Positions 3,256 to 35,278 of a DNA stretch of 64,000 bases are shown here, one piece after another (within the stretch, counting starts at the first letter, position 1; each line of letters begins with the position of its first letter). Below the pieces are notes generated by a model that saw only the letters and a program-made list of their open reading frames with translations, did no database searches and had not been told where the DNA came from. Position numbers and translations under genes: made by a program. This DNA comes from Gammaproteobacteria bacterium (GTDB lineage Bacteria > Pseudomonadota > Gammaproteobacteria > GRL18): positions 23,987 to 87,986 of the forward strand of contig JAPHSW010000144.1 in assembly GCA_026196615.1 (NCBI GenBank), in the 5' to 3' direction.

Positions 3256-5019
3256 ATGAGTGAAATAAAAGAAATTTTATCAAATATTGCTTTAAATCCA
3301 ATTAAAGGTGACAATTTAACAGGAACTGATGTTCGTTATGATGATGAATATGAGTTTGTTGAAGATGAATTATCCAAGCAAGGATCAATGATTGATAGAG
3401 GTCAAATTAATTGGAATAAAGTCATTGATGTTTCAGTAAATATTTTATCAAATAAATCTAAAGATCTTAAAGTTTGTTGCTATTTGACTCGAGCATTATT
3501 CGACACTAAGGGATTACCAGGATTGCAGTTAGGTCTAAATATGAATTATCAATTTCTTACTACTTTTTGGGATGATTTGTTCCCAATAAAAAAAATAGCT
3601 AGAGCTAATTCGTATGAATGGTTAACGAGTCGATTAATTCCTCTTCTTGAAAATATTGAACCTGAACTTGATTCACTAAATGATTTAGAAATATCTTATA
3701 AATGCATTCAGAATATTGAGAAATTTTTGAATGAGAAGCTAATGGAAGATGCACCAGCTTTAGGAAATTTGCGTCGCTTATTATATGATTTAATAGAACC
3801 TTTAAAACGGTTAAAAAAACTGGAAGCTGAACAACAATCTAATCTTGATTTAATGAAAGATAATGATGAAGTTTCCACATTATCTGAAGAGAATATTAAC
3901 TCATCACCACAATTAACCTATAAAAACGTAGACCCTATTGATGATTCAAATTCAAATGATTTAGGTAAAATTAATAATAAAATAATTTCTCAGTCAGAAC
4001 AAAGTGTATTACAAAAAAGTGTAACTAAAGTTAATAGTGTAGTTTCAAATGTTACTTCTGAAAAAGATAAGAACAAGATTATACGCCAATGTCACGAAAT
4101 GCTAAGAAATATATCTTTCTGGTCATTAGAAAACTCATTGGATACTCCTTCTGCCTATGCCATGACTCGATTTTCAACATGGATGTCGGTTGAACAAATT
4201 CCAATACATACAAATAATGTCACACCTTTAAAACCTGTACCAATAGATAAAGTAAATCATTATAACAATCTATTTGCTAGTAAAAAATACTTGGAATTGA
4301 TTCCTTTAGTTGAACAAAGCTTTTCAAGGTCACCGTTTTGGCTTGACGCACACCGACTGGTCTCATCTTCTTTAGATGCACTAGGAATGAGTGATGCTTC
4401 AATACAAGTAAAAGAACATCTAGGTCTTTTTTTACGCCGTTTCCCAAGTGTAATTGATCTTAAGTTTTCAGATGATTCAGGTTTTGCTGATCAGTTAACA
4501 AAACAATGGATTAACTCAGAAGTAATACCTGAAAGTTCTAGTGAGTCAGCTTTTACATCTATGAAAGATGGTGACTCTGATTATGATGAAGTTGTCAGTC
4601 AAGCTTGTGATTTAGTAAAACAGAAAAAATTAAATGAAGCTATAAATCTTTTTAAAAATAAAGTTTCTATTCAGGAAAGTTTTAGAAAAAAAACTTTTTG
4701 GAAGTATCATCTAGCTCGTTTTTGCTATGATAATGGTGAACATAAACTTTCTTTTTTTCTGTTAAAAGAAATAGATGGAATTTTATTGAAAAATAATTTA
4801 AAATGCTGGGAACCAGATTTGGAAAAAAATGTTGTATTCCTTTTGATACAATCTTTAAAAAATACAAATGTAATAAATTTTTTAAAGACTGAAACATCAA
4901 CGTTTTCTGATGATTCTCAGAATTTAGATGAAAAAAGTACGACTTATGACTATAGAGAATACAATCAACTCTATTCTCGTTTATGCCAACTGGATCCCAT
5001 ACTTGCTTTAGAAGTTTAA
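3256..5019 (+). CDS. tssA: Type VI secretion protein TssA (ImpA N-terminal domain)
   Basis: The N-terminus 'NPIKGDNLTGTDVRYDDEYEFVEDEL' is the ImpA_N motif. The gene sits immediately upstream of tssB/tssC. Confidence 0.8.
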   Translation: MSEIKEILSNIALNPIKGDNLTGTDVRYDDEYEFVEDELSKQGSMIDRGQINWNKVIDVSVNILSNKSKDLKVCCYLTRALFDTKGLPGLQLGLNMNYQFLTTFWDDLFPIKKIARANSYEWLTSRLIPLLENIEPELDSLNDLEISYKCIQNIEKFLNEKLMEDAPALGNLRRLLYDLIEPLKRLKKLEAEQQSNLDLMKDNDEVSTLSEENINSSPQLTYKNVDPIDDSNSNDLGKINNKIISQSEQSVLQKSVTKVNSVVSNVTSEKDKNKIIRQCHEMLRNISFWSLENSLDTPSAYAMTRFSTWMSVEQIPIHTNNVTPLKPVPIDKVNHYNNLFASKKYLELIPLVEQSFSRSPFWLDAHRLVSSSLDALGMSDASIQVKEHLGLFLRRFPSVIDLKFSDDSGFADQLTKQWINSEVIPESSSESAFTSMKDGDSDYDEVVSQACDLVKQKKLNEAINLFKNKVSIQESFRKKTFWKYHLARFCYDNGEHKLSFFLLKEIDGILLKNNLKCWEPDLEKNVVFLLIQSLKNTNVINFLKTETSTFSDDSQNLDEKSTTYDYREYNQLYSRLCQLDPILALEV

Positions 5020-5129
5020 TGACTTTCACATGTCATTTGGTGAAGTTTTAGAAGAAGTTTTTAAAAAAGGCTTAACAACCTTTTTAACAGTTATGCTTTC
5101 ATGGCAGAGCCTCACTCAATAACTGTTAT

Positions 5130-5169
5130 TAATGGATTAAGATTAGTTTAACATAATGGATTATAAGGA
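5130..5169 (+). promoter_or_regulatory. tssB leader with a duplicated TAATGGATTA motif plus a GGA-containing SD (candidate CsrA/RsmA target)
   Basis: TAATGGATTA occurs at 5130-5139 and again at 5154-5163. The SD AAGGAAG is at 5166-5172, and the tssB ATG is at 5178. Confidence 0.3.
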
Positions 5170-5177
5170 AGATTATC

Positions 5178-5681
5178 ATGGCCAAAGAAGGCTCAGTAGC
5201 ACCTAAAGAACGTATTAATATTAAATACTCACCTAGTACTGGAGACAGTCAAGAAGATGTTGAATTACCATTTAAAGTAATGGTTATGGGGGATTTTACT
5301 CAGCAAGAAGATGAACGACCTGTCGAAGAGAGAAAACCTATTAACATCAATAAAGATAACTTTAATGAAGTTTTAAGCAAACAAAACTTGACTATAGATC
5401 TTAATGTTTCTGATAAATTATCAGATGAGATATCTGGTGATGAAGATTCTGAAATGGCGATTAATCTTGAATTTAACTCCCTTAAGGATTTTGAACCTGA
5501 AAGTATTGTAAGACAGGTTCCTGAGTTAAATAAACTACTAGAATTGCGTGAAGCTCTTGTGGCTCTAAAAGGTCCTCTGGGAAATGTCCCAGCTTTTAGA
5601 AAAGAAATACAATCTGTTCTTGATGATGAAAGCAAAAAACAGCAACTCATGTCAGAGCTTGATATTACCTCAAATTCTTAA
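5178..5681 (+). CDS. tssB: T6SS contractile sheath small subunit TssB (VipA)
   Basis: 167 aa. 'MAKEGSVAPKERINIKY...VELPFKVMVMGDFT' is the canonical TssB N-terminus. An AAGGAAG Shine-Dalgarno lies 8 nt upstream. Confidence 0.9.
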   Translation: MAKEGSVAPKERINIKYSPSTGDSQEDVELPFKVMVMGDFTQQEDERPVEERKPININKDNFNEVLSKQNLTIDLNVSDKLSDEISGDEDSEMAINLEFNSLKDFEPESIVRQVPELNKLLELREALVALKGPLGNVPAFRKEIQSVLDDESKKQQLMSELDITSNS

Positions 5682-5743
5682 AAAACTAAGAAATAGATAA
5701 AAATTATCCTATTCAAGATGATTTTAAAAGAAAGGAGTCTTTT

Positions 5744-7222
5744 ATGTCTGCCAGTCAAAATACTACGGCCGAAGAACAACAGTTTGAATCAAACTCATTG
5801 CTTGATTCAATTGTCAATCAAACAAAATTAAAACCTGCAGATGAAGGTTATGATGTACAACGAAAGGGTGTTAGTGCATTTATTTCTGAGTTAATTAAAC
5901 CAAAAAATAAAGAAGAGCGAATCAATAAAAATCTTGTTGATAAAATGATTCTTGAACTTGATCAACAGTTGAGTAAACAGCTTGATGAAATTATGCATCA
6001 TAATGAATTTCAAAGTTTGGAATCTTCCTGGCGTGGGTTAAAACTTCTGATTGATAGAACAGATTTTCGTGAGAATATTAAAGTTGAGCTTTTAAGTGTT
6101 TCTAAAGATGATCTCTTAGATGATTTTGAAGATGCCCCTGAGGTTGTGAAGTCAGGTTTGTATAAACAAGTTTATACCTCTGAATTTGGTCAATTCGGTG
6201 GTGAGCCCGTTGGTGTTATGATTTCAAATTATCAATTAAGTCCATCAAGTCCTGATGTAAAACTGATGCAACATGTTTCAAGTGTTGCTTCAATGGCTCA
6301 TGCACCATTTATAGCCAGTGCAGGACCACAATTTTTTGATTTGGATACTTTTGAAGGCCTTCCAAATCTTAAAGATGTAAAATCTATTTTTGAAGGGCCT
6401 AAATATGCAAAATGGAATTCATTTAGAGAGTCTGAAGATTCACGCTATGTCGGCTTAACAATGCCGAGATTTTTACTAAGACCTCCTTATGATTCAGAAG
6501 AAAATCCTGTTAAAGTTTTTAATTATGAAGAAAATGTTTCTAATGATCATGAAGATTATTTATGGGGTAATACTTCTTTTACATTAGGCTCACGTTTAAC
6601 GGACAGTTTTGCAAAATTTCGATGGTGTCCTAATATTATAGGGCCACAAAGTGGTGGTTCGGTTGATGATTTACCTTTGCATCATTTTGAATCAATGGGT
6701 GAAATTGAAACAAAAATTCCGACTGAAATTTTAATTTCAGATAGGAAAGAGTTCGAACTTGCTGATGAAGGTTTTATTCCTCTTACTATGCGTAAAGGAA
6801 CCGATAATGCAGCATTCTTTTCAGCAAATTCAGCTCAAAAAAATAAACGTTTCCCAAATACACCTGAAGGAAAAGAAGCTGAAACAAATTATAAACTTGG
6901 TTCTCAATTACCTTATATGTTTATTATTAATCGTTTGGCGCATTATTTGAAAGTGATACAGCGTGAAAATCTGGGTACATGGAAAGAACGTACTGATTTG
7001 GAACGTGAACTCAATACCTGGATTAGACAGTTTGTTGCTGATCAGGAAAATCCTGCAGAAGAAGTGAGAAGCAGACGGCCTTTACGCTCAGCTAAAGTTG
7101 AAGTGAGTGAAGTGGATGGTGAACCAGGTTGGTATCGTGCTTCTTTACATGTTAGGCCTCACTTTAAATATATGGGCTCTGATTTTACTTTATCTTTAGT
7201 CGGAAAACTGGATAAATCATAG
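5744..7222 (+). CDS. tssC: T6SS contractile sheath large subunit TssC (VipB)
   Basis: 492 aa with conserved TssC blocks ('WRGLKLL', 'MAHAPFIASAGPQFF', 'GWYRASLHVRPHFKYMG'). Confidence 0.9.
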   Translation: MSASQNTTAEEQQFESNSLLDSIVNQTKLKPADEGYDVQRKGVSAFISELIKPKNKEERINKNLVDKMILELDQQLSKQLDEIMHHNEFQSLESSWRGLKLLIDRTDFRENIKVELLSVSKDDLLDDFEDAPEVVKSGLYKQVYTSEFGQFGGEPVGVMISNYQLSPSSPDVKLMQHVSSVASMAHAPFIASAGPQFFDLDTFEGLPNLKDVKSIFEGPKYAKWNSFRESEDSRYVGLTMPRFLLRPPYDSEENPVKVFNYEENVSNDHEDYLWGNTSFTLGSRLTDSFAKFRWCPNIIGPQSGGSVDDLPLHHFESMGEIETKIPTEILISDRKEFELADEGFIPLTMRKGTDNAAFFSANSAQKNKRFPNTPEGKEAETNYKLGSQLPYMFIINRLAHYLKVIQRENLGTWKERTDLERELNTWIRQFVADQENPAEEVRSRRPLRSAKVEVSEVDGEPGWYRASLHVRPHFKYMGSDFTLSLVGKLDKS

Positions 7223-17862: not shown

Positions 17863-18303
17863 CTAATTATTAGGATCATCCCAACTTGTTTGTACTTCTG
17901 ATTGATCATATGGCATTTCAAGTGGATCTCTTTCTCCATTTCTGATCATATTACGTCTTTTTCTATCATCACTTAATTTTTGTTTGATTAAATAATCATC
18001 CTGTCCAACAAAAATAGCATTATCTCCTTTAACTACATATTCAGGTTGATAAAAAACTTCATTATCATCGTTAAGATTCTCCTGGATTTTACCGCCAAGA
18101 ATATAACCAGTTACTGCTCCAACAGCGGTTGTTGCATATTTGCCATGACCACCACCAAATTGATAACCTATTAATGCACCAGTTGCTGAGCCAATAACCG
18201 AACCAACCGTTGTTGAATATTCATCATTTTCATCGGAATAAGCAAGATTTGAATAAATTACTGTCAGGAAGAGAATTGATAATGTGGTTTTATTGGAAAT
18301 CAT
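17863..18303 (-). CDS. Glycine-zipper (17-kDa-antigen-like) exported protein
   Basis: Signal peptide followed by 'GSVIGSATGALIGYQFGGGHGKYATTAVGAVTGYILGG' glycine-zipper repeats. Confidence 0.65.
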   Translation of the reverse strand: MISNKTTLSILFLTVIYSNLAYSDENDEYSTTVGSVIGSATGALIGYQFGGGHGKYATTAVGAVTGYILGGKIQENLNDDNEVFYQPEYVVKGDNAIFVGQDDYLIKQKLSDDRKRRNMIRNGERDPLEMPYDQSEVQTSWDDPNN

Positions 18304-18623: not shown

Positions 18624-20765
18624 ATGTATCCTAAGGCTTCAATAATATGGAAGTTAATTCTATCTGTATTCTTTTTTACTTCATTACAAACTCATGTTTA
18701 TGCAATGGAAACAAGAGTTGCATTAGTTATTGGTAATAGTAAATACCCAGATATGCCTTTAAGTAATCCTGCTAATGATGCTTCTGACGTTGCTGATTCA
18801 TTAAGAGAATTGGGATTTGATGTTGAACTGGCTCTGAACTTATCTTATTCAGATATGAACGAGATGATTTCTGAATTTGGTAAAAAGCTAAATAAAGCAG
18901 ATGTTGGTCTCTTCTTTTATGCCGGACATGGTGTTCAATCAGATGGAGTGAATTATTTGATACCTGTTAATACTGATTTATCTCATGAAAAATCTAATGT
19001 TGACAAAGTTATTTCGACATCAAGCATTTTACAAAAAATGGAGTTCGCAAAAAATGGTGTCAACATTATTGTTTTGGATGCTTGTAGAAATAACCCACTT
19101 TCGCAAAATTTTATTGAATCCTCTACATATGGTCTGGCAAAAATTAAAGCCCCTTCGGCTTCCTTTATTGCATACTCTACTGCTCCAGGAAATGTTGCTG
19201 CGGATGGTCTGGGTAGAAATAGCCCCTACACCCAAAACCTTTTAAAACAAATAAACATACCTAATCAGACGATAGAACAAACATTCAAAAAAGTCAGGGT
19301 TTCTGTTGTTGAAGGTACTAATGGTCAACAAGTGCCTTGGGAAAATTCTTCATTATTAGGTGATTTTTATTTTGTTGAACCTATTGTTTCTGATGAATTA
19401 ACTAAAGGTGGTCGATATGCTTCAATTGATCAGTTTGAGTTGGATTTTTGGAAAACCTTACAGAAAGAACCCTCCAGAGAACTATATGAATCCTATTTAA
19501 AAAAATTTCCTAAAGGACATTTTAATATTGTTGCTCAGGAAAAACTTAAACAAATGGGAAATGGAATGATAACAATTCGCTCTAATGTTTTTGGTGACAG
19601 TATTAAAATTAACGGAGAATATCGTGCTACCAGTAAATCAACATTGAGTCTTGCACCTGATGAATATACTGTTGAAGTAAGTAAGTTGGGATTCAACACT
19701 GTAACAAAAAATGTAACACTTGCTGCTGAGCAGCACCTGGATTTGCAATTTACTCTACAAGCTAAGGCTAATAATGATAATACTTCTATGCGTTCAGTTT
19801 CACTCAATTCCGAACCTATAAGAGAAGTAAGATTACCTGAACCTGAATTGGTGGAAAAAAATATTTCTGAAAAAGTGACACCCTTAAGAGTTTCAAGCAA
19901 AAGTACCTCAAATTCCATTAAACTACCAAAGACTAATATTTTGGTTGAGTACAGCAAAGAAAAAAATATTCCTCCTCTTATAAATGAGAAAATAGAACCC
20001 ATTATAGATATGCAGTTTGTGAATATTAAAGCCGGTTGTTTCATTATGGGTAGCTCACCTTTAGAAGATGGTCGTTTAAATGATGAAAAATCACATAATG
20101 TGTGTTTAAGTAAAGATTATTGGATTGCTAAATATGAAGTCACACAAGCTCAATGGGAAAAAGTAATGGGTAGTAACCCTTCTTTTTTTAAAGGCTGTGG
20201 TGGTGACTGTCCAGTGGAAAGAGTCAGTTGGAATGAAGTACAGGGATTTATTTTTAAATTAAATTTACAAACAGGTCAAAAATATCGTCTGCCAACAGAA
20301 GCTGAATGGGAATATGCTGCCCGAGCTGGTACAAAGTCATCAACCTATATCGGTAATAGTGAACTCTTAGGTCAAAACAATGCCAGTAAGCTCAATGATA
20401 TTGCCTGGTATAGTGGGAATAGTGCTGTAGATTATCGTGGAGGTCAATATTGTGAAGATTGGGATGAAAAAGAATTTGATGCTGTCCGCTGTGGTGTTCA
20501 TCCTGTTGGGCAGAAACAGGCAAACCAATGGCATATATACGATATGATTGGCAATGTTTGGGAATGGACAAACGATGTTTATGGGTATCTTTCAACTAAG
20601 GATGTAGTCGACCCTATAGGTGCAGAAAAAGGGAATAAAAGTGTTGTAAAAGGAGGAAGTTGGGAAGGTTCATTATCTCAAAATCGCTCTGCTGCACGTT
20701 ATGGTTTTGCAAAAAATAAAAAAATGGATAAGGTTGGTTTTAGATTAGTTATTACCGACGAGTAA
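18624..20765 (+). CDS. Exported caspase-like (peptidase C14) / PEGA / FGE-sulfatase-domain fusion protein
   Basis: Signal peptide at aa 1-27. The caspase His-Cys dyad sits in 'FFYAGHG' (H102) and 'IIVLDACRNNP' (C154). A PEGA-like beta domain spans about aa 315-378. The C-terminal SUMF1/FGE fold carries 'YRLPTEAEWEYAARAG', 'GNVWEWTND' and 'KGGSW'. Confidence 0.75.
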   Translation: MYPKASIIWKLILSVFFFTSLQTHVYAMETRVALVIGNSKYPDMPLSNPANDASDVADSLRELGFDVELALNLSYSDMNEMISEFGKKLNKADVGLFFYAGHGVQSDGVNYLIPVNTDLSHEKSNVDKVISTSSILQKMEFAKNGVNIIVLDACRNNPLSQNFIESSTYGLAKIKAPSASFIAYSTAPGNVAADGLGRNSPYTQNLLKQINIPNQTIEQTFKKVRVSVVEGTNGQQVPWENSSLLGDFYFVEPIVSDELTKGGRYASIDQFELDFWKTLQKEPSRELYESYLKKFPKGHFNIVAQEKLKQMGNGMITIRSNVFGDSIKINGEYRATSKSTLSLAPDEYTVEVSKLGFNTVTKNVTLAAEQHLDLQFTLQAKANNDNTSMRSVSLNSEPIREVRLPEPELVEKNISEKVTPLRVSSKSTSNSIKLPKTNILVEYSKEKNIPPLINEKIEPIIDMQFVNIKAGCFIMGSSPLEDGRLNDEKSHNVCLSKDYWIAKYEVTQAQWEKVMGSNPSFFKGCGGDCPVERVSWNEVQGFIFKLNLQTGQKYRLPTEAEWEYAARAGTKSSTYIGNSELLGQNNASKLNDIAWYSGNSAVDYRGGQYCEDWDEKEFDAVRCGVHPVGQKQANQWHIYDMIGNVWEWTNDVYGYLSTKDVVDPIGAEKGNKSVVKGGSWEGSLSQNRSAARYGFAKNKKMDKVGFRLVITDE

Positions 20766-20868
20766 ATTTATAGTTTTGTTAGGCTCCAATTAAATTTTAG
20801 CTGACAGACGTAGGTATTAATATACTTTTGTATTATTTAGGTTTTAGTTTTATAAAATGGATAATTAG

Positions 20869-21756
20869 ATGAAAAAAATTTATAAAGTTGCTTTATTAGG
20901 ATTTATTAGCTTGTTCTGCTTTGTTTCTATTGCTGTTCATGCAGCACCTCGGGCAAAACCTGTAGTCGCAATAAAAAAAGCTAAAATTGGTGAAGGTGTT
21001 AGTAAGTATGGAAAGAAGTATCTAAATTTAGGTACTTTATGGGATGAGATGGAAGCCTCTATCCAAAAAAATCGTAAATTTACTTTAGTTAGCCGAAAGA
21101 AAGAAGTCTTAGCTGATATTCGTAAGGAACAGGAGTTTGCTAAATCTGATTTGACGGCAGGTAATGCAGCAGAAGAAGGTCAAATAAAAAATGCAAACTT
21201 TTTAATTTTACCCACTGTGCAAGACTTTAAATTTTATCGTTCTAGTACCCCAGTCCCTAATCTTGATAATAAATACATTCGAGTAGATTCTGGTATGCTT
21301 GAAGTTAATGCTCAAATTATTGATACCTCTACAGGAGGTATTAAGACAACTTTTTACCTGAAATCTTCATTTTCTACCAAGAAAAAGGTGGTTAACACTC
21401 GAGGGGGCGTACCTAATAGTATTCACTTTACTAATATGGCAAAGAAAGTTGCAGCTCAAATGACGGATCAATTAGTTGATGTTGTTTTTCCAATGAAAGT
21501 TCTTAATGTAAAAGGTAGTCAAATTTGGATTAATCGTGGTAAAGATGGAGGATTAAAGAAGGGAGATACCCTTAAAGTATTTCGTCCAGGTATTGAGCTG
21601 ATTGATCCGGATACAGGTGAAAATCTTGGCTCAGCAGAGGAAGAAATTGGGAAAGTTAAGGTGACTCGTGTTAATCCAAAATTTACTACGGCTGAAGTTG
21701 TAAAAGGCAAAGATGCAGAAGTAATGATTGAAAAAGGTGATATTGTTCGTGAATAA
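20869..21756 (+). CDS. Exported protein: one CsgG/LpoB-like alpha/beta module plus a C-terminal ~85-aa beta module
   Basis: Signal peptide 'VSIAVHA/AP'. 'NRKFTLVSRKKEVLADIRKEQEF', 'ANFLILPTVQDF' and 'VNAQIIDTSTGGI' follow the CsgG-family pattern (L..s.rF.vvER..l...l.E / Ad.i..G.i..f / v.lR.vd..TG.i). The C-terminal module contains 'WINRGKDGGLKKGD...LIDPDTGENLG'. Confidence 0.55.
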   Translation: MKKIYKVALLGFISLFCFVSIAVHAAPRAKPVVAIKKAKIGEGVSKYGKKYLNLGTLWDEMEASIQKNRKFTLVSRKKEVLADIRKEQEFAKSDLTAGNAAEEGQIKNANFLILPTVQDFKFYRSSTPVPNLDNKYIRVDSGMLEVNAQIIDTSTGGIKTTFYLKSSFSTKKKVVNTRGGVPNSIHFTNMAKKVAAQMTDQLVDVVFPMKVLNVKGSQIWINRGKDGGLKKGDTLKVFRPGIELIDPDTGENLGSAEEEIGKVKVTRVNPKFTTAEVVKGKDAEVMIEKGDIVRE

Positions 21757-21833
21757 ATTTTAGATTAGCTCCAAGTTACAAAAATATTAATTTTTTGCTC
21801 AATACTATTTGTTTTAATACAACGGAACTCTTT

Positions 21834-24593
21834 ATGAAACACTTAATAAAACAATTCGCAATTGGATTACTGATTACAGGCCTGGTTTCTCAGGTCCAGG
21901 CAACATCTAATGATAGTTCTACTAATGTTCCTGAAAAAGCAACAATTACTGTGATGTCTTTTTCTGATTTTGTTCCTGATAGAAGTGGATCACAACGTAT
22001 TGGTCTTCCAGATGTTCTTGCTGGACGCATTATTGAAAAATTAAGTAATAATAAAAGGTTTACTGTAGTTGAGCGAAAAGCATTGAGACGCACTATTTTG
22101 GAGCAGCGTTTTGAAAAAAAAATGGACAAAAATTATCTGGATAAAACACTGGATAAAGCTATAGAAACTATGCAACACAACTCCGGAAGTGAGGTCGCAG
22201 CAACTAGTGATTGGAGTAATTACAATGATGTGGTAAAAGATTTTCAGGATCTTGGCTCAACTGTTGGTGCAGATTTTATCGTTTTAGGGGATCTGGAACA
22301 ATTAAAGTTTACCGTCGATCAGAAAAAGGTGCCATACAGTAATAATGGTAAAATCGCAGTATCTAATCGAGTGGATGCACGTTTACGCTTAAGAGTAATT
22401 GATGCTAAAAATGGTACAATTGCTGGAGCTGCTAATATAAAAACCAAATTGTCTGAATTATTATTTAAGGGTAAGGAAAGTGATACTGATGAGTTTACTT
22501 TCTATGATCATCTCTCTTCTTTAGCTGCTGCAAAAATCCTTGATGTGACTTTCCCTGCACGAATTGTCAGTATTGAGCCCCTTATTATTTCACGAGGAAG
22601 TAATGATGGTGTCTCTAAAGGTGATCAATTCATAGTCGAGCATGAAGGTAAAGAAGTTCGAAATAGCAGTGGGCTATTATTGGCACGATTAAAAAATGAA
22701 GTAGGCCGTGTCACAGTTGTTAATGTTCAACAGACTATTGCAATAGTAGAACCTGTTTCTGGTAATGGATTTCAACTGAATGATCTAGCAGTAGTTGATG
22801 CACAAGCTTCTAATTTACAACCTGCCATTGCAACACAATCTACAGTACCACTTAAACAAAACAATTCTGTATCAAGAAAATCTGATTCAGTACCTAAAAT
22901 TCCCAGATTGGCTGTTGGACTTGTCAAAATGGGATCTACTGCACGTACTGGGGATGCACTCATTGGCCAAAATGCTCAAGAACACACTCCTATTTTTACA
23001 GATACAATGATTTCTCGGTTAACACAAACAAAGCGTTTTCAGCTGATTGATCGTCAGGAAGTTGATCAGTTGCTAGACGAGCAATATGCTCAGGCACTGG
23101 CAAAAAATCAAAATGTACCTTCTGCAATGGGGACACTGAAAGGAGCGGATTATCTTGTTTATGGTAACTTAGCCTCAATTAGTAATAAGGAAAAAGTAAC
23201 TAAACTACCTGGTTCTAATCGTATATTTAAACAACATCTAGGTCAGGCAAGTGGAAATATGCGTATTGTCGATGCTCGTAGTGGTGATGTCATTGAATCT
23301 CGTAAAATCTCTGTTGAGCAATCCATTGAACAAGGGGGTACTCAAAATGAAATGATAGACAAATTAGCTGATGCATATGCAGAGCAGGTCGTTCTCATGT
23401 TGATGAATGCCCTATATCCAATTAAAGCTGCTCATATTAGTAATGATGGCCAAATATATATTAACCGAGGTAATGATGGAGGTCTTTTCGTAGGAGAAGA
23501 ACTTGAAATTTTTAAATCAGGTAAAAAAATTATTGATCCTGATACGGGGGTAGAGTTGGGTGTTGAAGAAAGTTATATTGGTATGGTTTTAGTAACAGAA
23601 GTAGAAGATGCACGCAGTAAAGGTGAACAAATAGAAGGTTCTGGTATTACTCGGGGAGATTTGCTTAAAAGAACGGCTAAAAATAAAGCTAAACGAAATA
23701 GTGTTGCTTCACAAGAACGTCAAACCAGGCTAATACGAAGTGGAAGTCAAATAGGTAAAAAATCAAAAGAAAAATTACGTTCAACTTTGGCAATGGGAAG
23801 CATTAAGTTAAATCATTCAGCTCAACTTTTTAATGGCTTTAATCATGGGCATTTAGAGCGTATTTCTGATGATATTGTTATGGGATTGACCAATAGTAAA
23901 CGATTTGTACTCATGGAACGTGAGCAAGTTGATCAAGTTCTTGATGAAAAAACTTTTGAAACAATAACTTCTGGTGGTGATATACAATCCAGACTAACCG
24001 AACTGGTTGGCGCAGATTATTTAATTCATGGTGAGCTGAATAACTTCTATATAAATACTGAACGTAAAAAAGTCCCTTATATGGATGAAGTTCAAGTCAA
24101 TAATACAGCTAAACTTGAAGGTGTTTTTCGAATTGTCGATGTGCATACAGGAGCTATTATCTGCTCTGAAAAGGTCAATTTTAAAGAAAAAATAAAAGGT
24201 GAAACTGATCGAACTGAGATTATTAGTAAAATGATCACAAAATACAGTACACTATCTGTTGCAAAAATAGTTTCTCGTCTTTATCCAATAAAAGTAATGG
24301 GAACTTCGGCTGATGGTATTGTCTATCTCAATCGTGGAGCTGATTCTGGACTCAATATTGGTGAACAATTTACTGTTATGCGTCCAGGTCAAGCCTTGAT
24401 AGATCCTGATACTGGAGAGTCATTTGGTCATGCTGAGAGTAAAGTTGCAACAATTCAGGTTACTGAAGTTGAAGGGGCTCGTTCTCGTGCAAAACTTTTA
24501 TCAGGTTCTGATCCTGTTAGCGGTGACATTTTACGTAAATCCAGCAAGCCTATAAAAAAGAAGAAACAAAAAGTAATGCAACCTGCATGGTAA
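21834..24593 (+). CDS. Exported protein with three tandem copies of the CsgG-like + beta module unit
   Basis: The ATG at 21834 gives a signal peptide 'MKHLIKQFAIGLLITGLVSQVQA'; the track start is a TTG at 21795. Three modules each carry 'KRF.(V/L)..R..(L/V)....L(E/D)(E/Q)', 'GAD(F/Y)(I/L)..G.L' and 'R(V/I)(I/V)D...G.(I/V)', and each is followed by a beta module. Confidence 0.6.
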   Translation: MKHLIKQFAIGLLITGLVSQVQATSNDSSTNVPEKATITVMSFSDFVPDRSGSQRIGLPDVLAGRIIEKLSNNKRFTVVERKALRRTILEQRFEKKMDKNYLDKTLDKAIETMQHNSGSEVAATSDWSNYNDVVKDFQDLGSTVGADFIVLGDLEQLKFTVDQKKVPYSNNGKIAVSNRVDARLRLRVIDAKNGTIAGAANIKTKLSELLFKGKESDTDEFTFYDHLSSLAAAKILDVTFPARIVSIEPLIISRGSNDGVSKGDQFIVEHEGKEVRNSSGLLLARLKNEVGRVTVVNVQQTIAIVEPVSGNGFQLNDLAVVDAQASNLQPAIATQSTVPLKQNNSVSRKSDSVPKIPRLAVGLVKMGSTARTGDALIGQNAQEHTPIFTDTMISRLTQTKRFQLIDRQEVDQLLDEQYAQALAKNQNVPSAMGTLKGADYLVYGNLASISNKEKVTKLPGSNRIFKQHLGQASGNMRIVDARSGDVIESRKISVEQSIEQGGTQNEMIDKLADAYAEQVVLMLMNALYPIKAAHISNDGQIYINRGNDGGLFVGEELEIFKSGKKIIDPDTGVELGVEESYIGMVLVTEVEDARSKGEQIEGSGITRGDLLKRTAKNKAKRNSVASQERQTRLIRSGSQIGKKSKEKLRSTLAMGSIKLNHSAQLFNGFNHGHLERISDDIVMGLTNSKRFVLMEREQVDQVLDEKTFETITSGGDIQSRLTELVGADYLIHGELNNFYINTERKKVPYMDEVQVNNTAKLEGVFRIVDVHTGAIICSEKVNFKEKIKGETDRTEIISKMITKYSTLSVAKIVSRLYPIKVMGTSADGIVYLNRGADSGLNIGEQFTVMRPGQALIDPDTGESFGHAESKVATIQVTEVEGARSRAKLLSGSDPVSGDILRKSSKPIKKKKQKVMQPAW
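21936..24539 (+). repeat. Three protein-level tandem repeats (about 21936-22799, 22902-23672, 23778-24539) of a ~255-290-aa two-domain unit
   Basis: Boundaries come from a hand alignment of the translated sequence. Copies 2 and 3 share 'Y(I/L)NRG.D.GL..GE......G...IDPDTG(V/E)..G..ES......VTEVE.ARS'. Copy 1 is more diverged. Confidence 0.55.
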
Positions 24594-24649
24594 TGCAAAT
24601 TAATTTAACTCAGTTAAAAAATAATATTTAATTATAAAAAGTAGTAGAG

Positions 24650-26467
24650 ATGATAAGTAAAAAAATTATTGTGTTTGTCACAACTTTGAGTAGTAGTTTA
24701 TTGCAACAGAATATCTATGCTGATTTTAATTTATTTGAAAAGTTTGGAGAAGGATTAAAGCAATCGTTGACCGGACAATCTCAACAGCCACAAGCACCTG
24801 TTAAAACTCAACCTCAGCAAATCATTCCAACAGGTTCAGTCAGTAAAACTGTTAATGTTCGTTCAGGTCCTGGGACGAGTCATGGAAAAGTTGGAAGTGT
24901 TAATCAGACATCAATAATAAGAATAAAGCATATAGAAAATAACTGGGCACAGGTAGAAGCTGATACATCAAATGGCCAGGTTCAGGGGTGGATCTATAAG
25001 CCTCTACTAACAATTAATGGTACAGTTTCTGTTCCAGGTTCAGCAACAAACTCCGCAACAGCTTCTCAGTCAAGCGCTGGAACTCAGAATGTTTCATATG
25101 CTGGTTATTCTAAAGATTTTCAGACTGTAAAAAACATGATGTCCAGCGGAAATTTAAAGGGGATTGATAAATTCTTTACTGATCGTGAAGCTGAAGTTTT
25201 GAAGAAAAATCAGACAAAATGGCAGGCCATGGAAGAAATTGGTTTGTTACGTTGGATGGAACGCGGTACCTTGTATCTTGATGAAGGTAATATAGATAAA
25301 TCTGTCCGTGCATTTACAAATGCTGAAGATATTCTAAATGTACGACAAGAAGATTCTAAAATTTCTGACTTCTTTACTTCAATCACTTCTTTTGCTGCAG
25401 AAACCGTATCTGGTAATGAAGAATTTATGGAGTACCCCGGTGTTGGGTATGAAAAAGTTCTTATGCTTAATTATAAGTCAATTTCATTTTTACTTGATGG
25501 TCAGCGTAAAGCTTATAATGTTTCACGAAGAGCTATTGATTGGCAAAACATGGAAAAGGCAAAATTTCGAGATGAGATTGAGGCTATTGAAAAAGAAACA
25601 AAAGAACAAAAAGAAAGTTTGAAAACACAGTCGACTGATGATGAATGGAAGAAAAAATATAAAGCTTTAGACAAAATTGCTAATAAAGTCCCCAGTGCTT
25701 TTGTTAATCCTTTTGGCTATTATGTTACTGGTATGATACAGGAGTTTGAGAGCAAAAAGGATCCATCTTTAAAAGATAATGCTCGTATAGCTTATGAAAA
25801 AGCACTAGATCTTAATCCAAACAGCAGTGTTTTGAAGCAAGCTGTTAAAGATATGAAGAATAAGAAGAAATACGGTAGTAAACGACTATTGCATCTGGTT
25901 GTCGGTGATGGATTTGCTCCTGAGAAAAAAATGCTAACTTATAATATTCCCACTGACAATGGTGGTGTAATACCTATAAAACTCCCAATATATGAACCAG
26001 TGGCTTCAAAAGTTGCAAGAATAGAGTTACATACAACTGGAGGCAAAAGACTTGCGAGACTTTCATCAGTTGCAGATATTGAAGCTATAAGTTTAAGACA
26101 TCAGAAAGATTCGGAAGCATTTCGTTCCTTAAAAATGATTTTGGCAACAATTCGTGCAACTGGTGTGACTGCTGTTACGAGTCAATTTGGTTCTTTGGGT
26201 AATGAATTAGGAGCTTCACTTAATGATACTGCCGCACCCGATATGCGTTCCTGGATGAGTTTACCTGCAAACCTACAGGCAGCAAGGTTATATGTGAGTA
26301 AAAATATTAGTAAATTTAAAATTGTTAGTTTTGATTCAAAAGGTCGACGTTTAGCTTCTAAAACTATTTCACTTAATAGTAAGTCCGATTCTTTTATTTA
26401 TGCTCGTAGTGTAGATAAGCAATTATATGTTCATAGCTCAAAGTCATTGTGGACAGCGAGTAATTAA
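24650..26467 (+). CDS. Exported SH3b-domain protein with a large TPR-like/COG3014-like C-terminal region
   Basis: Signal peptide, then a Gln/Pro-rich linker, then bacterial SH3 'VNVRSGPGTSHGKVGSV...NNWAQVEA...GWIY'. The rest is helical and sits upstream of ycfL-like and lpoB-like genes, as COG3014 proteins do. Confidence 0.5.
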   Translation: MISKKIIVFVTTLSSSLLQQNIYADFNLFEKFGEGLKQSLTGQSQQPQAPVKTQPQQIIPTGSVSKTVNVRSGPGTSHGKVGSVNQTSIIRIKHIENNWAQVEADTSNGQVQGWIYKPLLTINGTVSVPGSATNSATASQSSAGTQNVSYAGYSKDFQTVKNMMSSGNLKGIDKFFTDREAEVLKKNQTKWQAMEEIGLLRWMERGTLYLDEGNIDKSVRAFTNAEDILNVRQEDSKISDFFTSITSFAAETVSGNEEFMEYPGVGYEKVLMLNYKSISFLLDGQRKAYNVSRRAIDWQNMEKAKFRDEIEAIEKETKEQKESLKTQSTDDEWKKKYKALDKIANKVPSAFVNPFGYYVTGMIQEFESKKDPSLKDNARIAYEKALDLNPNSSVLKQAVKDMKNKKKYGSKRLLHLVVGDGFAPEKKMLTYNIPTDNGGVIPIKLPIYEPVASKVARIELHTTGGKRLARLSSVADIEAISLRHQKDSEAFRSLKMILATIRATGVTAVTSQFGSLGNELGASLNDTAAPDMRSWMSLPANLQAARLYVSKNISKFKIVSFDSKGRRLASKTISLNSKSDSFIYARSVDKQLYVHSSKSLWTASN

Positions 26468-26493
26468 TTTTTTGAGAGGAAAGGTGAGTTAGT

Positions 26494-26961
26494 ATGAAAT
26501 TGAATTCAATCGCATCAAATTTTAAGTTATTTATTTTGATTACTTTGTTCTTCACATTAGTGGCTTGCAAGCCTGCAACGGTTGCAGAGCAACCTGGTTT
26601 TGTGGCACAAGATACTTTGGATGATACCCACCCTAGAGCGAGATTAGTTTTAGGTTCCGAAAAATTAGTAGGCAATATACGTATGGGTAATATACGTTTT
26701 CGAAAAGTAGGTTTATTTACTCAATCTCAAATTGGTATTCAAAATTTATCAAATGTTAGATATAACTTGGAATATAAAGTTGAATGGGAAGATGCTAGTG
26801 GTTTCATGCTTGATCAATCAGGTGTTTGGCAACGTTTTACTTTAGCACCTACTCAAATTGATACAGTAACAACAACGGGTAAAGTGAAAGATGCCTATAA
26901 AGTTGTCATAACTGTGAGACTTCCCGACGATCCATTTATCATTAATAGAGAAAAAAAATAA
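26494..26961 (+). CDS. YcfL-like (DUF1425) lipoprotein
   Basis: Lipobox 'TLVAC'. The 'YNLEYKVEWEDASGFMLDQSGVWQRFTLAP' pattern resembles YcfL 'Y.F.WyD..G'. Position is immediately upstream of the lpoB-like gene. Confidence 0.5.
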   Translation: MKLNSIASNFKLFILITLFFTLVACKPATVAEQPGFVAQDTLDDTHPRARLVLGSEKLVGNIRMGNIRFRKVGLFTQSQIGIQNLSNVRYNLEYKVEWEDASGFMLDQSGVWQRFTLAPTQIDTVTTTGKVKDAYKVVITVRLPDDPFIINREKK

Positions 26962-26979
26962 CTTAATCAGGAAATTTTT

Positions 26980-27516
26980 ATGAACTTAGCAAAAAAATCA
27001 ATTTTACTATCAATTCTTGCCGCGACAGTGGTAACAACTGGTTGTCAGTCTGTTCCTATGGGGCAGCAGTCAAATGTTGCTATGGTTGACCCAAAAGGGC
27101 GTGGTCATCTGCAAGCTCAACTTACTATGGCTGATTATGTTGCACTTGCTGAAAAAGTGACTAATAAAATGCTTGTTTCAAAATTGGTTCAGAAGTGGGG
27201 TAATAGAAAACCTAAGGTTATTGCCGCTACTCCCGTTAATAATACCGATAATGAAAGTGTTCGTATGAAAGACCTTCACGATAGAATTCAGGAAACGCTA
27301 TTTAATTCTGATGTGATGCGTGTTGTTGATAAATCGGCTACCAGTTTTGACTATATTATAAAAAGTGAATTGACCTCTACACGTCAATATGGAAAAGGTG
27401 GACAGGAATTGGTTCATTATACCTTACAGCTTAAAATGTTTACTCTGATGGGAGAGTTGAAAGGGCAGTGGTCAGATGATCTGGCGATGGCTAAATCAGA
27501 AAAAAGTATGTTTTAA
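26980..27516 (+). CDS. LpoB-family (COG3417) lipoprotein
   Basis: Lipobox 'VTTGC'. 'KVIAATPVNNTDNESVRMKDLHDRIQETLFNSDVMRVVD...YIIKSELT' follows the LpoB-domain pattern. Confidence 0.55.
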   Translation: MNLAKKSILLSILAATVVTTGCQSVPMGQQSNVAMVDPKGRGHLQAQLTMADYVALAEKVTNKMLVSKLVQKWGNRKPKVIAATPVNNTDNESVRMKDLHDRIQETLFNSDVMRVVDKSATSFDYIIKSELTSTRQYGKGGQELVHYTLQLKMFTLMGELKGQWSDDLAMAKSEKSMF

Positions 27517-27522
27517 TCGTTT

Positions 27523-27561
27523 TTCACCCTTTCCCTTGTTTTTAATAGGGGTGAGGGTGAA
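27523..27561. terminator. Hairpin between convergent genes (putative bidirectional terminator)
   Basis: TTCACCCTTTCCC (27523-27535) pairs with GGGGTGAGGGTGAA (27548-27561): 8 perfect bp plus a GGG/CCC extension. There is no clean U-tract. Confidence 0.45.
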
Positions 27562-29874: not shown

Positions 29875-30144
29875 ATGAGCGAAGAAAATTTACTGAATAA
29901 AAAAAGATTACAGTGGCAGTGCCGCCGTGGTATGTTAGAACTTGAATTGTTTTTAAATGATTTTCTAGAAGACAATTATGAGGATCTAAGTAACGATCAA
30001 AAGTTGTTATTTTCAGATTTATTAAACACCATTGATCCAGTTTTATTTGATTATCTTATGGGAACACAAGAGCCGGAAGATCATGGACTTAGGGATATTG
30101 TCCAAACAATTAGAGACGCTACCCGCAAGCGGGTTAACTCTTGA
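29875..30144 (+). CDS. sdhE: FAD assembly factor SdhE (YgfY/CptB)
   Basis: 89 aa with 'RLQWQCRRGMLELELFL', which includes the conserved RGxxE motif. Confidence 0.9.
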   Translation: MSEENLLNKKRLQWQCRRGMLELELFLNDFLEDNYEDLSNDQKLLFSDLLNTIDPVLFDYLMGTQEPEDHGLRDIVQTIRDATRKRVNS

Positions 30145-30673
30145 GCTAAATTGTGCTGCTTTATTTTGTAGAAACAGGCCTCAGAATCTTAATAATAAAT
30201 TCATTGGATTTAGCTATATACTAAGTCTGATCTATCTTTTACTCTTCTTTTTTCTGACAATTTCTCTATATTTGATACCAATAAACATTGACTACTATAT
30301 TATATTCACCGTGGTGATTATTTGGTATTGCCAACATATCTATAGGAAGCAATTTCTATTTAATGTTCCTTCTTCGGTTAAAAAAATAGTTTTTACTGAA
30401 TTGGGATGGTGTTATGTACAATTAAATAATTCTTATATATTTAAAGCTGATATTGCTAGTGATACGGTTTTGACAGAAAAATTGGTTATTCTCAACTTAG
30501 TTGAACGACGCTCTAATGATTCTGTTTCATCTCCTATACAGTTAATAGGTCATTCAATATTTTCAAAAAATCAATCAGTGCTATTAACTGCAGATAGGTT
30601 AGGATGTGATAAATTTCGAGAAATAAAACGTCATCTACGTTTTATCAGTTTTAATAAAACAGAGTCTGATTAA
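30083..30673 (+). CDS. ygfX: YgfX/CptA-like (DUF1434) inner-membrane protein; start uncertain
   Basis: It lies immediately downstream of sdhE and overlaps it. Two hydrophobic helices ('FIGFSYILSLIYLLLFFFLTISLYLI', 'YYIIFTVVIIWY') are followed by a soluble tail ending '...LLTADRLGCDKFREIKRHLRF', matching the YgfX architecture. Confidence 0.5.
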   Translation: MDLGILSKQLETLPASGLTLELNCAALFCRNRPQNLNNKFIGFSYILSLIYLLLFFFLTISLYLIPINIDYYIIFTVVIIWYCQHIYRKQFLFNVPSSVKKIVFTELGWCYVQLNNSYIFKADIASDTVLTEKLVILNLVERRSNDSVSSPIQLIGHSIFSKNQSVLLTADRLGCDKFREIKRHLRFISFNKTESD

Positions 30674-34237: not shown

Positions 34238-35278
34238 ATGAAATTTGTAAATTTAGATTTTCAACGCTGGTTAATTATTACTTTAATCACATTCAGCTCA
34301 ATCTCAGTTTCACAGGCACAAACTCCCGTCTTTACTTCAGAAAATATCCTGGAAACTTCAAATATATCTACTGTTTCCATAGAATCGCTCTTGGAAAAGT
34401 TTGTTCGTAATGGCTCAAAACAATTATTTGATGGTACCTTCATTTATTTGTTTGAGGATAAAATCCAAACAGTCAAAGTTCATCGAAAAGTAGATGTTAA
34501 TGGACAAGTAGTTGAGGAATTTATACCTCTTGATGGTAACCAAAAGACAAGCTCCAGAGTTTTGGAAGAGCATCATTGCCTCCTTGATAATAACTGGCAG
34601 TATCAATTTGACTCAATATCATCAAGTTTTCCTTTTCGTGTAAATAATACTTACCAGAAATTACAGTTGTATTATAATTTTACTTTATTGGGAGTTGAAA
34701 CAATAGCAGGCATGTCTGCAGTAAGATTACTCATTGAAAGTAAAGATCCTTATCGATACAGTTATCATCTTTGGTTTGAACCCAAAGAAGCGACTTTATT
34801 AAAATATAAATTAGTTGATAGTAATGCAAAATTAATTGAACAATATCTATTTACTAATATTTCTTTTCAGGGTGATAAAGAACAAATAAAAAATTTAGAT
34901 GAGGTTAGTACATCAACCCCATGTATTGAACAGTTTGCAGGTATGACCGAAGCATTTCAGAAGTATTTTAATCATAATAAAATTCCAGCTGGTTTTGAGC
35001 TTGTTTCCTTCAGAAAAGGTTATATTGATAGTACTGAGCGCCAGGCCTTTCAATTTCAATTGAGTGATGGATTGTCGGCGGTTTCTGTTTTTATTGAAGA
35101 CAGTAAAAAAGCGACTAAATCTATTAATGGTGTTGTAAAACTTGGGCCTGTAAATATTGCAGGAAAAAATGTATCAAATCATCAAATCACAATTATTGGC
35201 GCAATTCCAATTGTAAGTGCTTTAGAATTTATTAAAGCAGAAAAATTATCAGAAAATGAATATTTTTCTTCTCAATAA
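34238..35278 (+). CDS. rseB: Sigma-E regulatory protein RseB (MucB)
   Basis: Signal peptide, length and position fit. The 'GTFIYLFEDKIQTVKVHR' and 'YHLWFEPKEATLLKYKL' blocks are MucB/RseB-like. Confidence 0.75.
   Translation: MKFVNLDFQRWLIITLITFSSISVSQAQTPVFTSENILETSNISTVSIESLLEKFVRNGSKQLFDGTFIYLFEDKIQTVKVHRKVDVNGQVVEEFIPLDGNQKTSSRVLEEHHCLLDNNWQYQFDSISSSFPFRVNNTYQKLQLYYNFTLLGVETIAGMSAVRLLIESKDPYRYSYHLWFEPKEATLLKYKLVDSNAKLIEQYLFTNISFQGDKEQIKNLDEVSTSTPCIEQFAGMTEAFQKYFNHNKIPAGFELVSFRKGYIDSTERQAFQFQLSDGLSAVSVFIEDSKKATKSINGVVKLGPVNIAGKNVSNHQITIIGAIPIVSALEFIKAEKLSENEYFSSQ

Follow-up and report, generated by a model that had tools for sequence, protein, structure and literature searches.

The window analysed here is a stretch of 64,000 nucleotides (nt) from a gammaproteobacterium of the GRL18 lineage (GenBank assembly GCA_026196615.1, contig JAPHSW010000144.1, positions 23,987 to 87,986, forward strand), and the subject is a run of six consecutive open reading frames (ORFs) on its plus strand at 18624-27516, designated g1 to g6. 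The five genes g2 to g6 are a conserved, self-contained cassette across orders and two phyla, found in many marine and sediment bacteria and previously undescribed: no description was found in the literature searched, and homologues are annotated as hypothetical, SH3-domain or FlgT-C-domain proteins. The module repeated in g2 and g3 is closest to the ring builders FlgT and TsaP, and neither to the CsgG pore nor to LpoB. The caspase-type gene g1 is a lineage-specific accessory, yet linked, and lies outside the conserved core. The genes, their domains and modules, and the stem-loop that follows g6 are collated below (aa, amino acids; HMM, hidden Markov model; i-E, independent E value).

18624-20765 (+): g1, exported caspase-PEGA-FGE-type protein (Pfam), 713 aa
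18711-19370 (+): g1 Peptidase_C14 (caspase) domain, aa 30-249; E 1.7e-43, 149 bits
19563-19763 (+): g1 PEGA domain, aa 314-380; E 4.8e-10
20013-20750 (+): g1 FGE-sulfatase-fold domain, aa 464-709; E 6.2e-41, PF03781 141 bits
20869-21756 (+): g2, single FlgT-like module, 295 aa; alpha/beta domain and FlgT_C beta-roll; signal peptide, non-lipoprotein
21795 (+): alternative TTG start of g3, giving 932 aa; listed mechanically
21834-24593 (+): g3, three FlgT-like modules in one chain with basic linkers, 919 aa from the ATG
22011-22799 (+): g3 module 1, aa 60-322 (HMM envelope); i-E 1.3e-11 with the g2 HMM
22875-23675 (+): g3 module 2, aa 348-614; i-E 2.1e-29; best CsgG/LpoB Pfam stretch
23748-24542 (+): g3 module 3, aa 639-903; i-E 2.4e-30; FlgT_M and FlgT_C matches
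24650-26467 (+): g4, protein with SH3b, TPR-like helical and beta-sandwich domains, 605 aa; SH3_3 2.4e-8, faint TPR
26494-26961 (+): g5, DUF1425/YcfL-family lipoprotein, 155 aa; lipobox LVAC; DUF1425 1.3e-11
26980-27516 (+): g6, LpoB-fold lipoprotein, 178 aa; lipobox TTGC; LpoB 9.5e-7
27522-27561 (no strand assigned): strong stem-loop in the spacer where g6 and the HDOD gene converge; possible bidirectional terminator without a U tract

Conservation of the cassette and its variable neighbours

Related loci, denoted here by L numbers, were obtained from a scan of one genome per species (27 loci) and from a metagenome scan (80 loci), and Oleiphilus (L001) was added through an exact-protein look-up. 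The genome loci belong to Sedimenticola, Cycloclasticus, Thalassolituus, Methylomonas, Methylomarinum, Motiliproteus, Thiodiazotropha, Chromatiales and symbionts of tubeworms and clams, and include two Desulfobacterota (SEEP-SRB2 and a member of the Desulfobacteraceae). By tblastn, ORF clustering and HMM maps, the order g2-g3-g4-g5-g6 was recovered in at least 29 complete loci, both gammaproteobacterial and from Desulfobacterota, with unrelated flanks. It is kept in every related contig long enough to contain it, two further cassettes (L015 and L038) are split, and no counter-example to the co-occurrence of g2 to g6 was found among close relatives. The association of g2 and g3 with a g4/DUF1425/LpoB trio, which an initial annotation of the window had expected to recur in other genomes, was thus borne out. 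Independent gene calls and Pfam confirm the order in Oleiphilus messinensis and a 5.3-Mb Pseudomonadales metagenome-assembled genome. Identity among g2 sequences is 57-88 % over more than 100 clusters, and g4, the signature protein of the cassette, belongs to a family of about 178 clusters at 50 % identity (E≤1e-30) without a Pfam model.

The number of modules in g3 varies: three are present in the window, about 2.7 with a different tail in forms of 820-860 aa, and two or one elsewhere. Where g3 has a single module, an extra GYF_2/DUF6844 protein is encoded between g2 and g3, as in Oleiphilus (L001, 10922-12538), an Escarpia symbiont (L014, 10970-12352) and Motiliproteus (L015, 10936-12315); in the last of these g4 to g6 are located 4 kb upstream of g2. 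Other rearrangements are a gene for a YdjM-family membrane protein that separates g2 from g3 in a Taylorina symbiont (L006, 10907-11542), a duplicated g4 in L027 (13714-17434) and a duplicated g6 in Methylomonas (L026, 5602-6735).

A simpler and widespread form of the cassette comprises one CsgG/FlgT-like protein, a g4-type TPR lipoprotein and the DUF1425 and LpoB-fold lipoproteins, and is often preceded by a PEGA protein. In this form remote g2-like genes (26-33 % identity) lie directly upstream of the trio of g4-like, DUF1425-like and LpoB-like genes, and g3 is missing. The g4-like proteins of these remote cassettes are lipoproteins, about 466 aa long, that have TPR matches and an invariant Gly-Cys, and residues 149-593 of g4 were aligned to them with 99.9 % probability by hhalign (E 4e-37). 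In the Desulfomonilia-type contig L111 the order CsgG (317 aa), g4-like, DUF1425, LpoB was obtained by independent annotation, and L112 has the trio alone; counting the window, a g4-type gene directly precedes the DUF1425 and LpoB-like lipoprotein genes there and in more than 40 loci. Real loci thus form a graded series: the trio, the trio with one CsgG/FlgT-like gene, then with a PEGA protein, with a multi-module g3, and with a caspase. Because this series exists, the earlier proposal that a known trio had been extended by further modules and a protease is supported.

Remote g2-like genes were also encountered in two other arrangements. A second conserved five-gene set (L043, 5720-10960; L046, 5696-10972; L052, 340-5471; also L042 and L044) encodes three proteins without Pfam matches (about 380, 360 and 240 aa), then a PEGA protein and then a CsgG/g2-like one, while g4, g5 and g6 are missing; the set appears to be another uncharacterised system based on the pair of PEGA and CsgG-like proteins. 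Tandem pairs of remote g2-like genes without a nearby g4-like gene are present in L049, L050, L073, L081, L090-L092, L094, L098, L099, L103 and L104, mostly on short marine contigs; in L091 (13.9 kb) no trio lies within reach. In two Desulfobacterota-type contigs, L111 (1704-3089) and L112 (1885-3231), a DegP/HtrA-type trypsin-PDZ protease is encoded upstream of the remote cassette at a distance of 3-4 kb, and genes for thioredoxin and thioredoxin reductase share in this conserved synteny, which may be coincidental.

The caspase, PEGA and FGE-sulfatase domains that had been proposed for g1 all pass Pfam with the values given above. The caspase dyad His102 (AGHG)/Cys154 (DACR) is kept in all eight of the g1 orthologues compared. 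In the FGE domain no Cys follows the GGSW motif; the catalytic cysteine pair that formylglycine-generating enzyme has downstream of GGS(W/F) is missing, and the domain is for this reason probably a binding module and non-catalytic. It also falls under the NCBIfam cut-offs for GldK, PvdO and EgtB, and g1 scores 73 bits against an equivalog cut-off of 350 for PorK/GldK of type IX secretion. Orthologues of g1 lie 12-91 nt upstream of g2 in seven loci (L003-L006, L008, L027 and L031), and a caspase-PEGA-FGE gene occupies this position solely in the clade of the window and in L027/L031.

Elsewhere, individual domains of g1 are again encoded next to the cassette, in different arrangements. A caspase gene with a PEGA domain is found downstream of g6 in the Methylococcales-type loci L026, L036 and L037, a contig-truncated caspase gene is found there in L040, and L038 has an adjacent caspase on the opposite strand. 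At the remote cassette L110 an FGE-type protein is encoded upstream and a caspase on the downstream side, and in L062 an FGE protein is encoded 5 kb upstream. A PEGA protein lies immediately upstream of, or is fused to, the g2-like gene in 26 of the 62 surveyed loci that carry a g4-like gene. A functional link is argued because genes that are separate in some genomes appear fused in g1. The earlier view of a periplasmic caspase-type protease as part of the system stands as to the recurrence of the domains, and has to be corrected in that g1 is accessory and outside the core. Other exported hydrolases are encoded at the same position: lipase-like with VWA (L010 and L002), CHAP with VWA (L011) and SLT with M23 and M48 (L087). 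All of these were read as carrying signal peptides.

Two further ideas on g1 were set aside. An anti-phage defence system has little support, as g1 alone weakly matches a generic PADLOC "caspase" model and g2 to g6 match nothing. Cleavage of g3, as a polyprotein, by the co-encoded Arg/Lys-specific caspase is not specifically supported; linker 2 of g3 is K/R-rich whether or not the locus has a caspase, and the K+R fractions are similar in the two cases.

Domain structure of the cassette proteins

The initial annotation had described g2 as one CsgG/LpoB-like module plus a beta module. The two-domain architecture was retained, and the closest relatives were found to be FlgT and TsaP: in Pfam, FlgT_C is matched at 4.6e-9 (37 bits, cut-off 27), and the LpoB and CsgG matches are sub-threshold (CsgG, PF03783: 16.8 bits, under the cut-off of 20.8). 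In a Foldseek search with the AlphaFold model of g2 (pLDDT, predicted local distance difference test, 83), the best match was FlgT (3w1e; E 1e-12, 294 aligned columns), followed by FlgT in the cryo-EM structure of the Vibrio LPHT ring (8z5n) and, at lower ranks, by CsgG (about 1e-8) and then PelC, GNA1162 and HpaA-type lipoproteins. The C-terminal domain of g2 also matches TsaP (6ve2_O and 3jc8) by sequence (E 1e-6 to 2e-5).

The chain of g3 was matched by the HMM of g2 orthologues at aa 90-308, 389-612 and 672-902; because of these three matches it is taken as a triplicated g2-type unit, as had been supposed. Its Pfam matches are CsgG (3.6e-22; 79.2 bits, cut-off 20.8), FlgT_C (50.8 bits, cut-off 27), LpoB and FlgT_M, and a PDB sequence search with g3 gave spurious designed-protein matches only. 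The signal peptides of g2 and g3 end in AVHA/AP and VQA/TS (slash, cleavage position), and neither has a lipobox; a lone Cys in the h-region of g2 follows Phe and is missing in orthologues.

The most conserved segment of g2 is a long hairpin (aa 111-152, pLDDT about 94) with the invariant charged residues R124, K135, R138 and D140 and the invariant motif FxFxR..(V)PN. Such strong conservation fits a tightly packed oligomer interface.

Proteins of the g3 type with two or three modules share a basic C-terminal tail, ...K(V)MQP[AN][WF]-COOH, which in the window spans 24540-24593 and ends in ...QPAW. This tail was found in L003-L012, L025, L026 and L031-L037, and in the forms of about 830 aa (L016-L024 and L028) it is replaced by a different, helical C-terminal extension. 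By analogy with the tail of FlgP on the FlgT ring, the g3 tail could be a docking peptide.

The SH3b domain and helical repeats that had been assigned to g4 were recovered by Pfam and in its AlphaFold model (pLDDT 86). Three parts are resolved in the model: SH3b at aa 57-128, a domain of TPR-like helices, about 250 residues long, at aa 152-403, and, at aa 411-596, a beta-sandwich into which a helical segment is inserted. Foldseek returned no whole-chain PDB analogue of g4; the SH3 and TPR parts alone were matched.

For g5 and g6, the likeness to YcfL and LpoB in the initial annotation holds at the level of family and fold. DUF1425 (PF07233) is matched by g5 with 44.6 bits against a cut-off of 28.3, and profile matches were obtained with PDB 3o0l (4e-13) and 4gio (6e-4), the latter of which we take to be Cj0090. 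The Pfam LpoB model is matched by g6 with 29.3 bits against a cut-off of 22.3, and the profile of its family matches the LpoB structures 2mii/4q6z over the whole globular domain (E about 1e-3). Nearly all orthologues of both retain the Cys of the lipobox. Orthology to E. coli YcfL and LpoB was rejected: E values in BLASTP were 0.03 for g5 and 0.085 for g6, and g6 reaches 43.1 bits against a cut-off of 110.55 for the LpoB equivalog (TIGR02722), so that the two are family-level relatives only. When g4, g5 and g6 were compared singly with the sequences of the PDB, no useful match resulted, and no equivalog was found in NCBIfam. Every domain call proposed from the letters of the window survives the Pfam and NCBIfam searches.

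Proposed function and competing explanations

The explanation that we favour, at about an even chance of being correct, is that the cassette encodes a periplasmic scaffold, tethered to the outer membrane and in contact with peptidoglycan, which bears a lineage-specific hydrolase. The four FlgT-type modules of g2 and g3 would, by analogy with FlgT around the flagellar LP ring and TsaP around the PilQ secretin, oligomerise into a periplasmic ring or lattice, and g5 (an Ig-like lipoprotein of the YcfL family) and g6 (a lipoprotein with the LpoB fold) may tether this structure to the outer membrane in a manner comparable to the docking of FlgP. A bridge to peptidoglycan would be provided by the SH3b domain of g4, and one to partner proteins by its TPR and beta-sandwich domains. 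Docking of g1 via its PEGA domain is proposed because PEGA proteins are the usual neighbours or fusion partners of the FlgT-like gene in remote cassettes; g1 would thereby bring in an Arg/Lys-type cysteine protease, predicted to be active, and a putatively lectin-like, non-catalytic binding domain of the FGE fold. The likely role of such a scaffold is to maintain or remodel the connection of the outer membrane with peptidoglycan. Hydrolysis would take place locally, through an enzyme that differs between lineages: in the window the caspase, and at other loci lipase-VWA, CHAP-VWA or SLT/M23/M48 proteins.

In Helicobacter, hypervesiculation results from the loss of HP0018, a protein described as homologous to Cj0089, and MltD and AmiA co-purify with it (PMC11394524). 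An envelope-maintenance role fits because of this loss phenotype and because peptidoglycan-hydrolase domains are encoded at some loci. The more general proposal of the initial annotation, a multi-component envelope assembly without prior description, is supported: of the outcomes that were to refute it, neither a lack of co-occurrence with the trio, nor terminators between the genes, nor failed domain calls were found.

Several observations weigh against the scaffold explanation. The similarity between g2 and FlgT is at the level of the fold (12-13 % identity; template-modelling (TM) score about 0.35, as the orientation of the domains differs), and by Pfam the FlgT_N domain is absent from g2, which has M-like and C domains only. 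About two thirds of the close cassettes have no adjacent hydrolase, for which reason the enzyme arm is regarded as optional. Many remote g2-like genes lie in other contexts, namely the tandem pairs and the different five-gene set, and the loci were gathered by g2-like patterns, so that the rate of co-occurrence of g2 and g4 is biased upward. The phenotypes from Helicobacter are carried over to g4 indirectly and by analogy. Lastly, the AT-rich gap of 103 nt before g2 could harbour a promoter.

It is unlikely that the cassette is in essence an outer-membrane-anchored regulator of peptidoglycan enzymes, in which g6 would act in the manner of LpoB on a class-A penicillin-binding protein (PBP), or g4 in the manner of HP0018 on lytic enzymes, with the FlgT-like proteins as spacers; such a regulator overlaps with the scaffold explanation. 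The association of HP0018 with MltD/AmiA would be in line with it, as would the description of HP1457 as an LpoB homologue (PMC11394524). The LpoB fold of g6 (Pfam 29 bits; profile matches to LpoB structures) points the same way, as do the SH3b domain of g4 and the CHAP, SLT and M23 domains encoded beside some cassettes, but g6 attains 43 bits where the LpoB equivalog demands 110.55, and E 0.085 against E. coli LpoB. The segment between the lipid anchor and the globular domain of g6 measures about 25 residues, and the linker of E. coli LpoB is much longer. Furthermore, no linked PBP gene was present in any locus examined, the annotated ORFs of the window included, and a regulator of this kind leaves four highly conserved FlgT-type modules unexplained.

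A similarly small probability is assigned to an unrecognised periplasmic machine in the form of a ring or cage, related to the H ring and the TsaP collar but belonging neither to flagella nor to pili, with interchangeable exported hydrolase arms (caspase with an FGE-type sensor, lipase-VWA, CHAP-VWA, or SLT/M23). In the organism of the window this would be a caspase-armed device for periplasmic surveillance or self-destruction, in which an envelope component that is foreign or damaged would be sensed by the PEGA and FGE domains, with periplasmic proteolysis as the response; alternatively, the ring or cage would constitute a new delivery route for these enzymes.

Quite improbable is a CsgG-type outer-membrane channel for secretion or display, with g2 and g3 as the pore, g4 to g6 as accessory proteins and the variable hydrolases as cargo or effectors. 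The Pfam match of g3 to CsgG is above threshold (79 bits) and CsgG is the second-best structural match of g2; however, FlgT matches better and over the full length, and g2 and g3 start with type-I signal peptides that lack a lipobox, whereas CsgG is a lipoprotein. CsgG forms a 36-stranded barrel from amphipathic transmembrane hairpins; the one long hairpin in the g2 model (aa 111-152), with its invariant charges, seems unlike a hairpin exposed to lipid. Varied hydrolases with signal peptides beside a constant core are typical of secretion systems with polymorphic cargo, but most cassettes have no candidate cargo adjacent to them, and the neighbours annotated in the window and in the loci examined include neither CsgE/CsgF-like genes nor genes for amyloid subunits.

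It is highly improbable that the cassette supplies an accessory ring to a trans-envelope machine encoded elsewhere (an H-ring-like disc, or a TsaP-like collar on the secretin of a type II secretion system or type IV pilus): FlgT and TsaP are its closest characterised relatives and the window holds a gspD secretin gene (45291-47174) and type VI secretion genes, but none of the roughly 60 cassette loci examined adjoins flagellar, pilus or secretin genes, the gspD of the window is 18 kb off, past unrelated housekeeping genes, and the FlgT_N domain is absent.

The TPR/YcfL/LpoB-like cluster occurs in pathogens (Campylobacter and Helicobacter) and in many environmental bacteria without an established function. 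It is part of a larger modular system into which FlgT-type modules, PEGA proteins and exported hydrolases have repeatedly been drawn, among them a caspase with an intact active site; caspase-type proteases for which a periplasmic action is predicted are rare. The chance that a distinct envelope machine is encoded is real, though unproven, and the ring or lattice tethered to the outer membrane and touching peptidoglycan is offered as a concrete structural hypothesis. If the assembly were confirmed, the collar principle of FlgT and TsaP would extend beyond flagella and pili. Genetically tractable hosts are available among the carriers (Oleiphilus, Cycloclasticus and Methylomonas).

Genomic setting and comparison with known systems

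The arrangement of six same-strand genes that had been put forward as an operon of exported proteins was reproduced by the ORF listing, with the identical gaps of 103, 77, 56, 26 and 18 nt from g1 to g6 when the ATG at 21834 is taken as the start of g3. The export of all six products was likewise upheld: g1 to g4 begin with signal peptides, and g5 and g6 have the lipoboxes listed above, these features having been judged by eye together with the N-terminal helices of the AlphaFold models. No terminator-like site was found in any of the gaps, as had been noted before; the two plus-strand matches of the terminator scan both lie within coding sequence, and the scan is weak evidence either way, since its total counts were not above those of shuffled controls. 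A promoter scan was uninformative (35 matches, 41 expected), and co-transcription of the cassette genes is inferred solely from spacing. The 78-nt spacer after g6 folds at -28 kcal/mol; the hairpin that had been proposed as a terminator at 27523-27561 is real as a strong stem-loop (about 27522-27561), but a U tract is absent on both strands.

The block is flanked upstream by lysS and downstream by HDOD, GCV_T/YgfZ-like and Sdh5 genes. It had been suspected of being an accessory insertion, and this was rejected: no sign of a mobile insertion was found in checks of GC content (0.33-0.38, the same in block and flanks), tRNAs (none), flanking direct or inverted repeats (none beyond chance) and synteny. 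Close relatives carry the same upstream neighbours (likely lysS and a glycine-zipper gene) and a gene of the same size (281 aa) downstream. The glycine-zipper gene (Rick_17kDa_Anti/SlyB-like; 17863-18303, minus strand) encodes a small exported protein, is divergent and lies just upstream of g1; it holds the same position in L003-L005, L007 and L008, even though L007 has no g1.

Farther away, type VI secretion genes are found about 11 kb upstream (3256-7222, plus strand), namely tssA (TIGR03362, 1.4e-94) and that of the sheath large subunit, tssC (1.5e-216), with rarA, serS, recJ, prfB and lysS between them and the cassette. The GspD secretin gene (TIGR02517, 5e-148; plus strand), 18 kb downstream, is of interest solely as a conceivable partner of a TsaP-like collar, and its linkage was not seen in other genomes. 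An sdhE (Sdh5) gene overlaps the ORF of a CptA-like membrane protein (29875-30673, plus strand), and a weak RseB-like gene lies 3' of nadB (34238-35278, plus strand) in the usual nadB/rse/lepA housekeeping synteny.

Bacterial orthocaspases fused to sensor domains of the FGE-sulfatase type occur in conflict systems, and g1 resembles them in its Peptidase_C14 domain with intact His-Cys dyad and in its FGE-fold domain. It differs from them in its signal peptide and in its operon made wholly of envelope proteins, and the NTPase and other cytoplasmic partners of conflict systems are absent here.

The CsgG/HfaB curli channel shares the alpha/beta fold of the module and the above-threshold Pfam match of g3; it differs in that g2 and g3 are non-lipoproteins, that no CsgE, CsgF or amyloid genes were seen and that FlgT is the best structural match. 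With E. coli ycfL-lpoB the cassette shares the adjacency of a DUF1425 lipoprotein gene and an LpoB-fold lipoprotein gene, the similarity being at family level only and g6 remaining under the LpoB equivalog cut-off.

FlgT of the Vibrio H ring (3w1e and 8z5n) has the M-type alpha/beta domain and the FlgT_C beta-roll in common with g2. It is a periplasmic ring former that partners the outer-membrane lipoprotein FlgP, in analogy to the lipoproteins of the cassette; the H ring is a 26-mer of FlgT, and the C-terminal tail of FlgP binds in a groove of the ring (bioRxiv 10.64898/2025.12.04.692373). The differences are an identity of 12-13 % with g2, the lack of FlgT_N and the presence of the module in 1+3 copies, and no flagellar genes (flgO/flgP, motX/motY) were found near the cassette in the loci mapped or annotated.

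In TsaP (6ve2 and 3jc8), which is matched at sequence level in its FlgT_C-like part (E 1e-6 to 2e-5), two FlgT-C-like beta-rolls form spokes around the PilQ secretin (bioRxiv 10.1101/2020.05.29.123786). Both TsaP, through LysM, and the cassette, through the SH3b domain of g4, pair a peptidoglycan-binding domain with ring modules of the FlgT_C type, and FlgT and TsaP, like g2 and g3, are not lipoproteins. The cassette differs from TsaP in having no LysM domain, no linked secretin and a different N-terminal domain.

The closest counterpart in gene order is the co-transcribed operon cj0089-cj0090-cj0091 of Campylobacter jejuni, which encodes a TPR lipoprotein of 453 aa, a lipoprotein of 122 aa and an LpoB/HP1457-like lipoprotein of 207 aa (PMC3100323); HP0018 and HP1457 of Helicobacter are grouped with it. 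The trio of the remote cassettes L111 and L112 has the same order and sizes: a TPR (lipo)protein of about 450-470 aa, a small DUF1425-type lipoprotein and an LpoB-like lipoprotein of about 200 aa. A profile search from the remote g4-like proteins for relatives in Campylobacter and Helicobacter returned only proteins of the Desulfobacterota type. In Campylobacter there are no FlgT/CsgG-like, PEGA or caspase genes in the operon, and the g4 of the window adds an SH3b domain and has a type-I signal peptide and no lipobox. Rather than being a member of any characterised system, the cassette is related to a cluster of the Cj0089-91 type combined with ring modules of the FlgT/TsaP kind.

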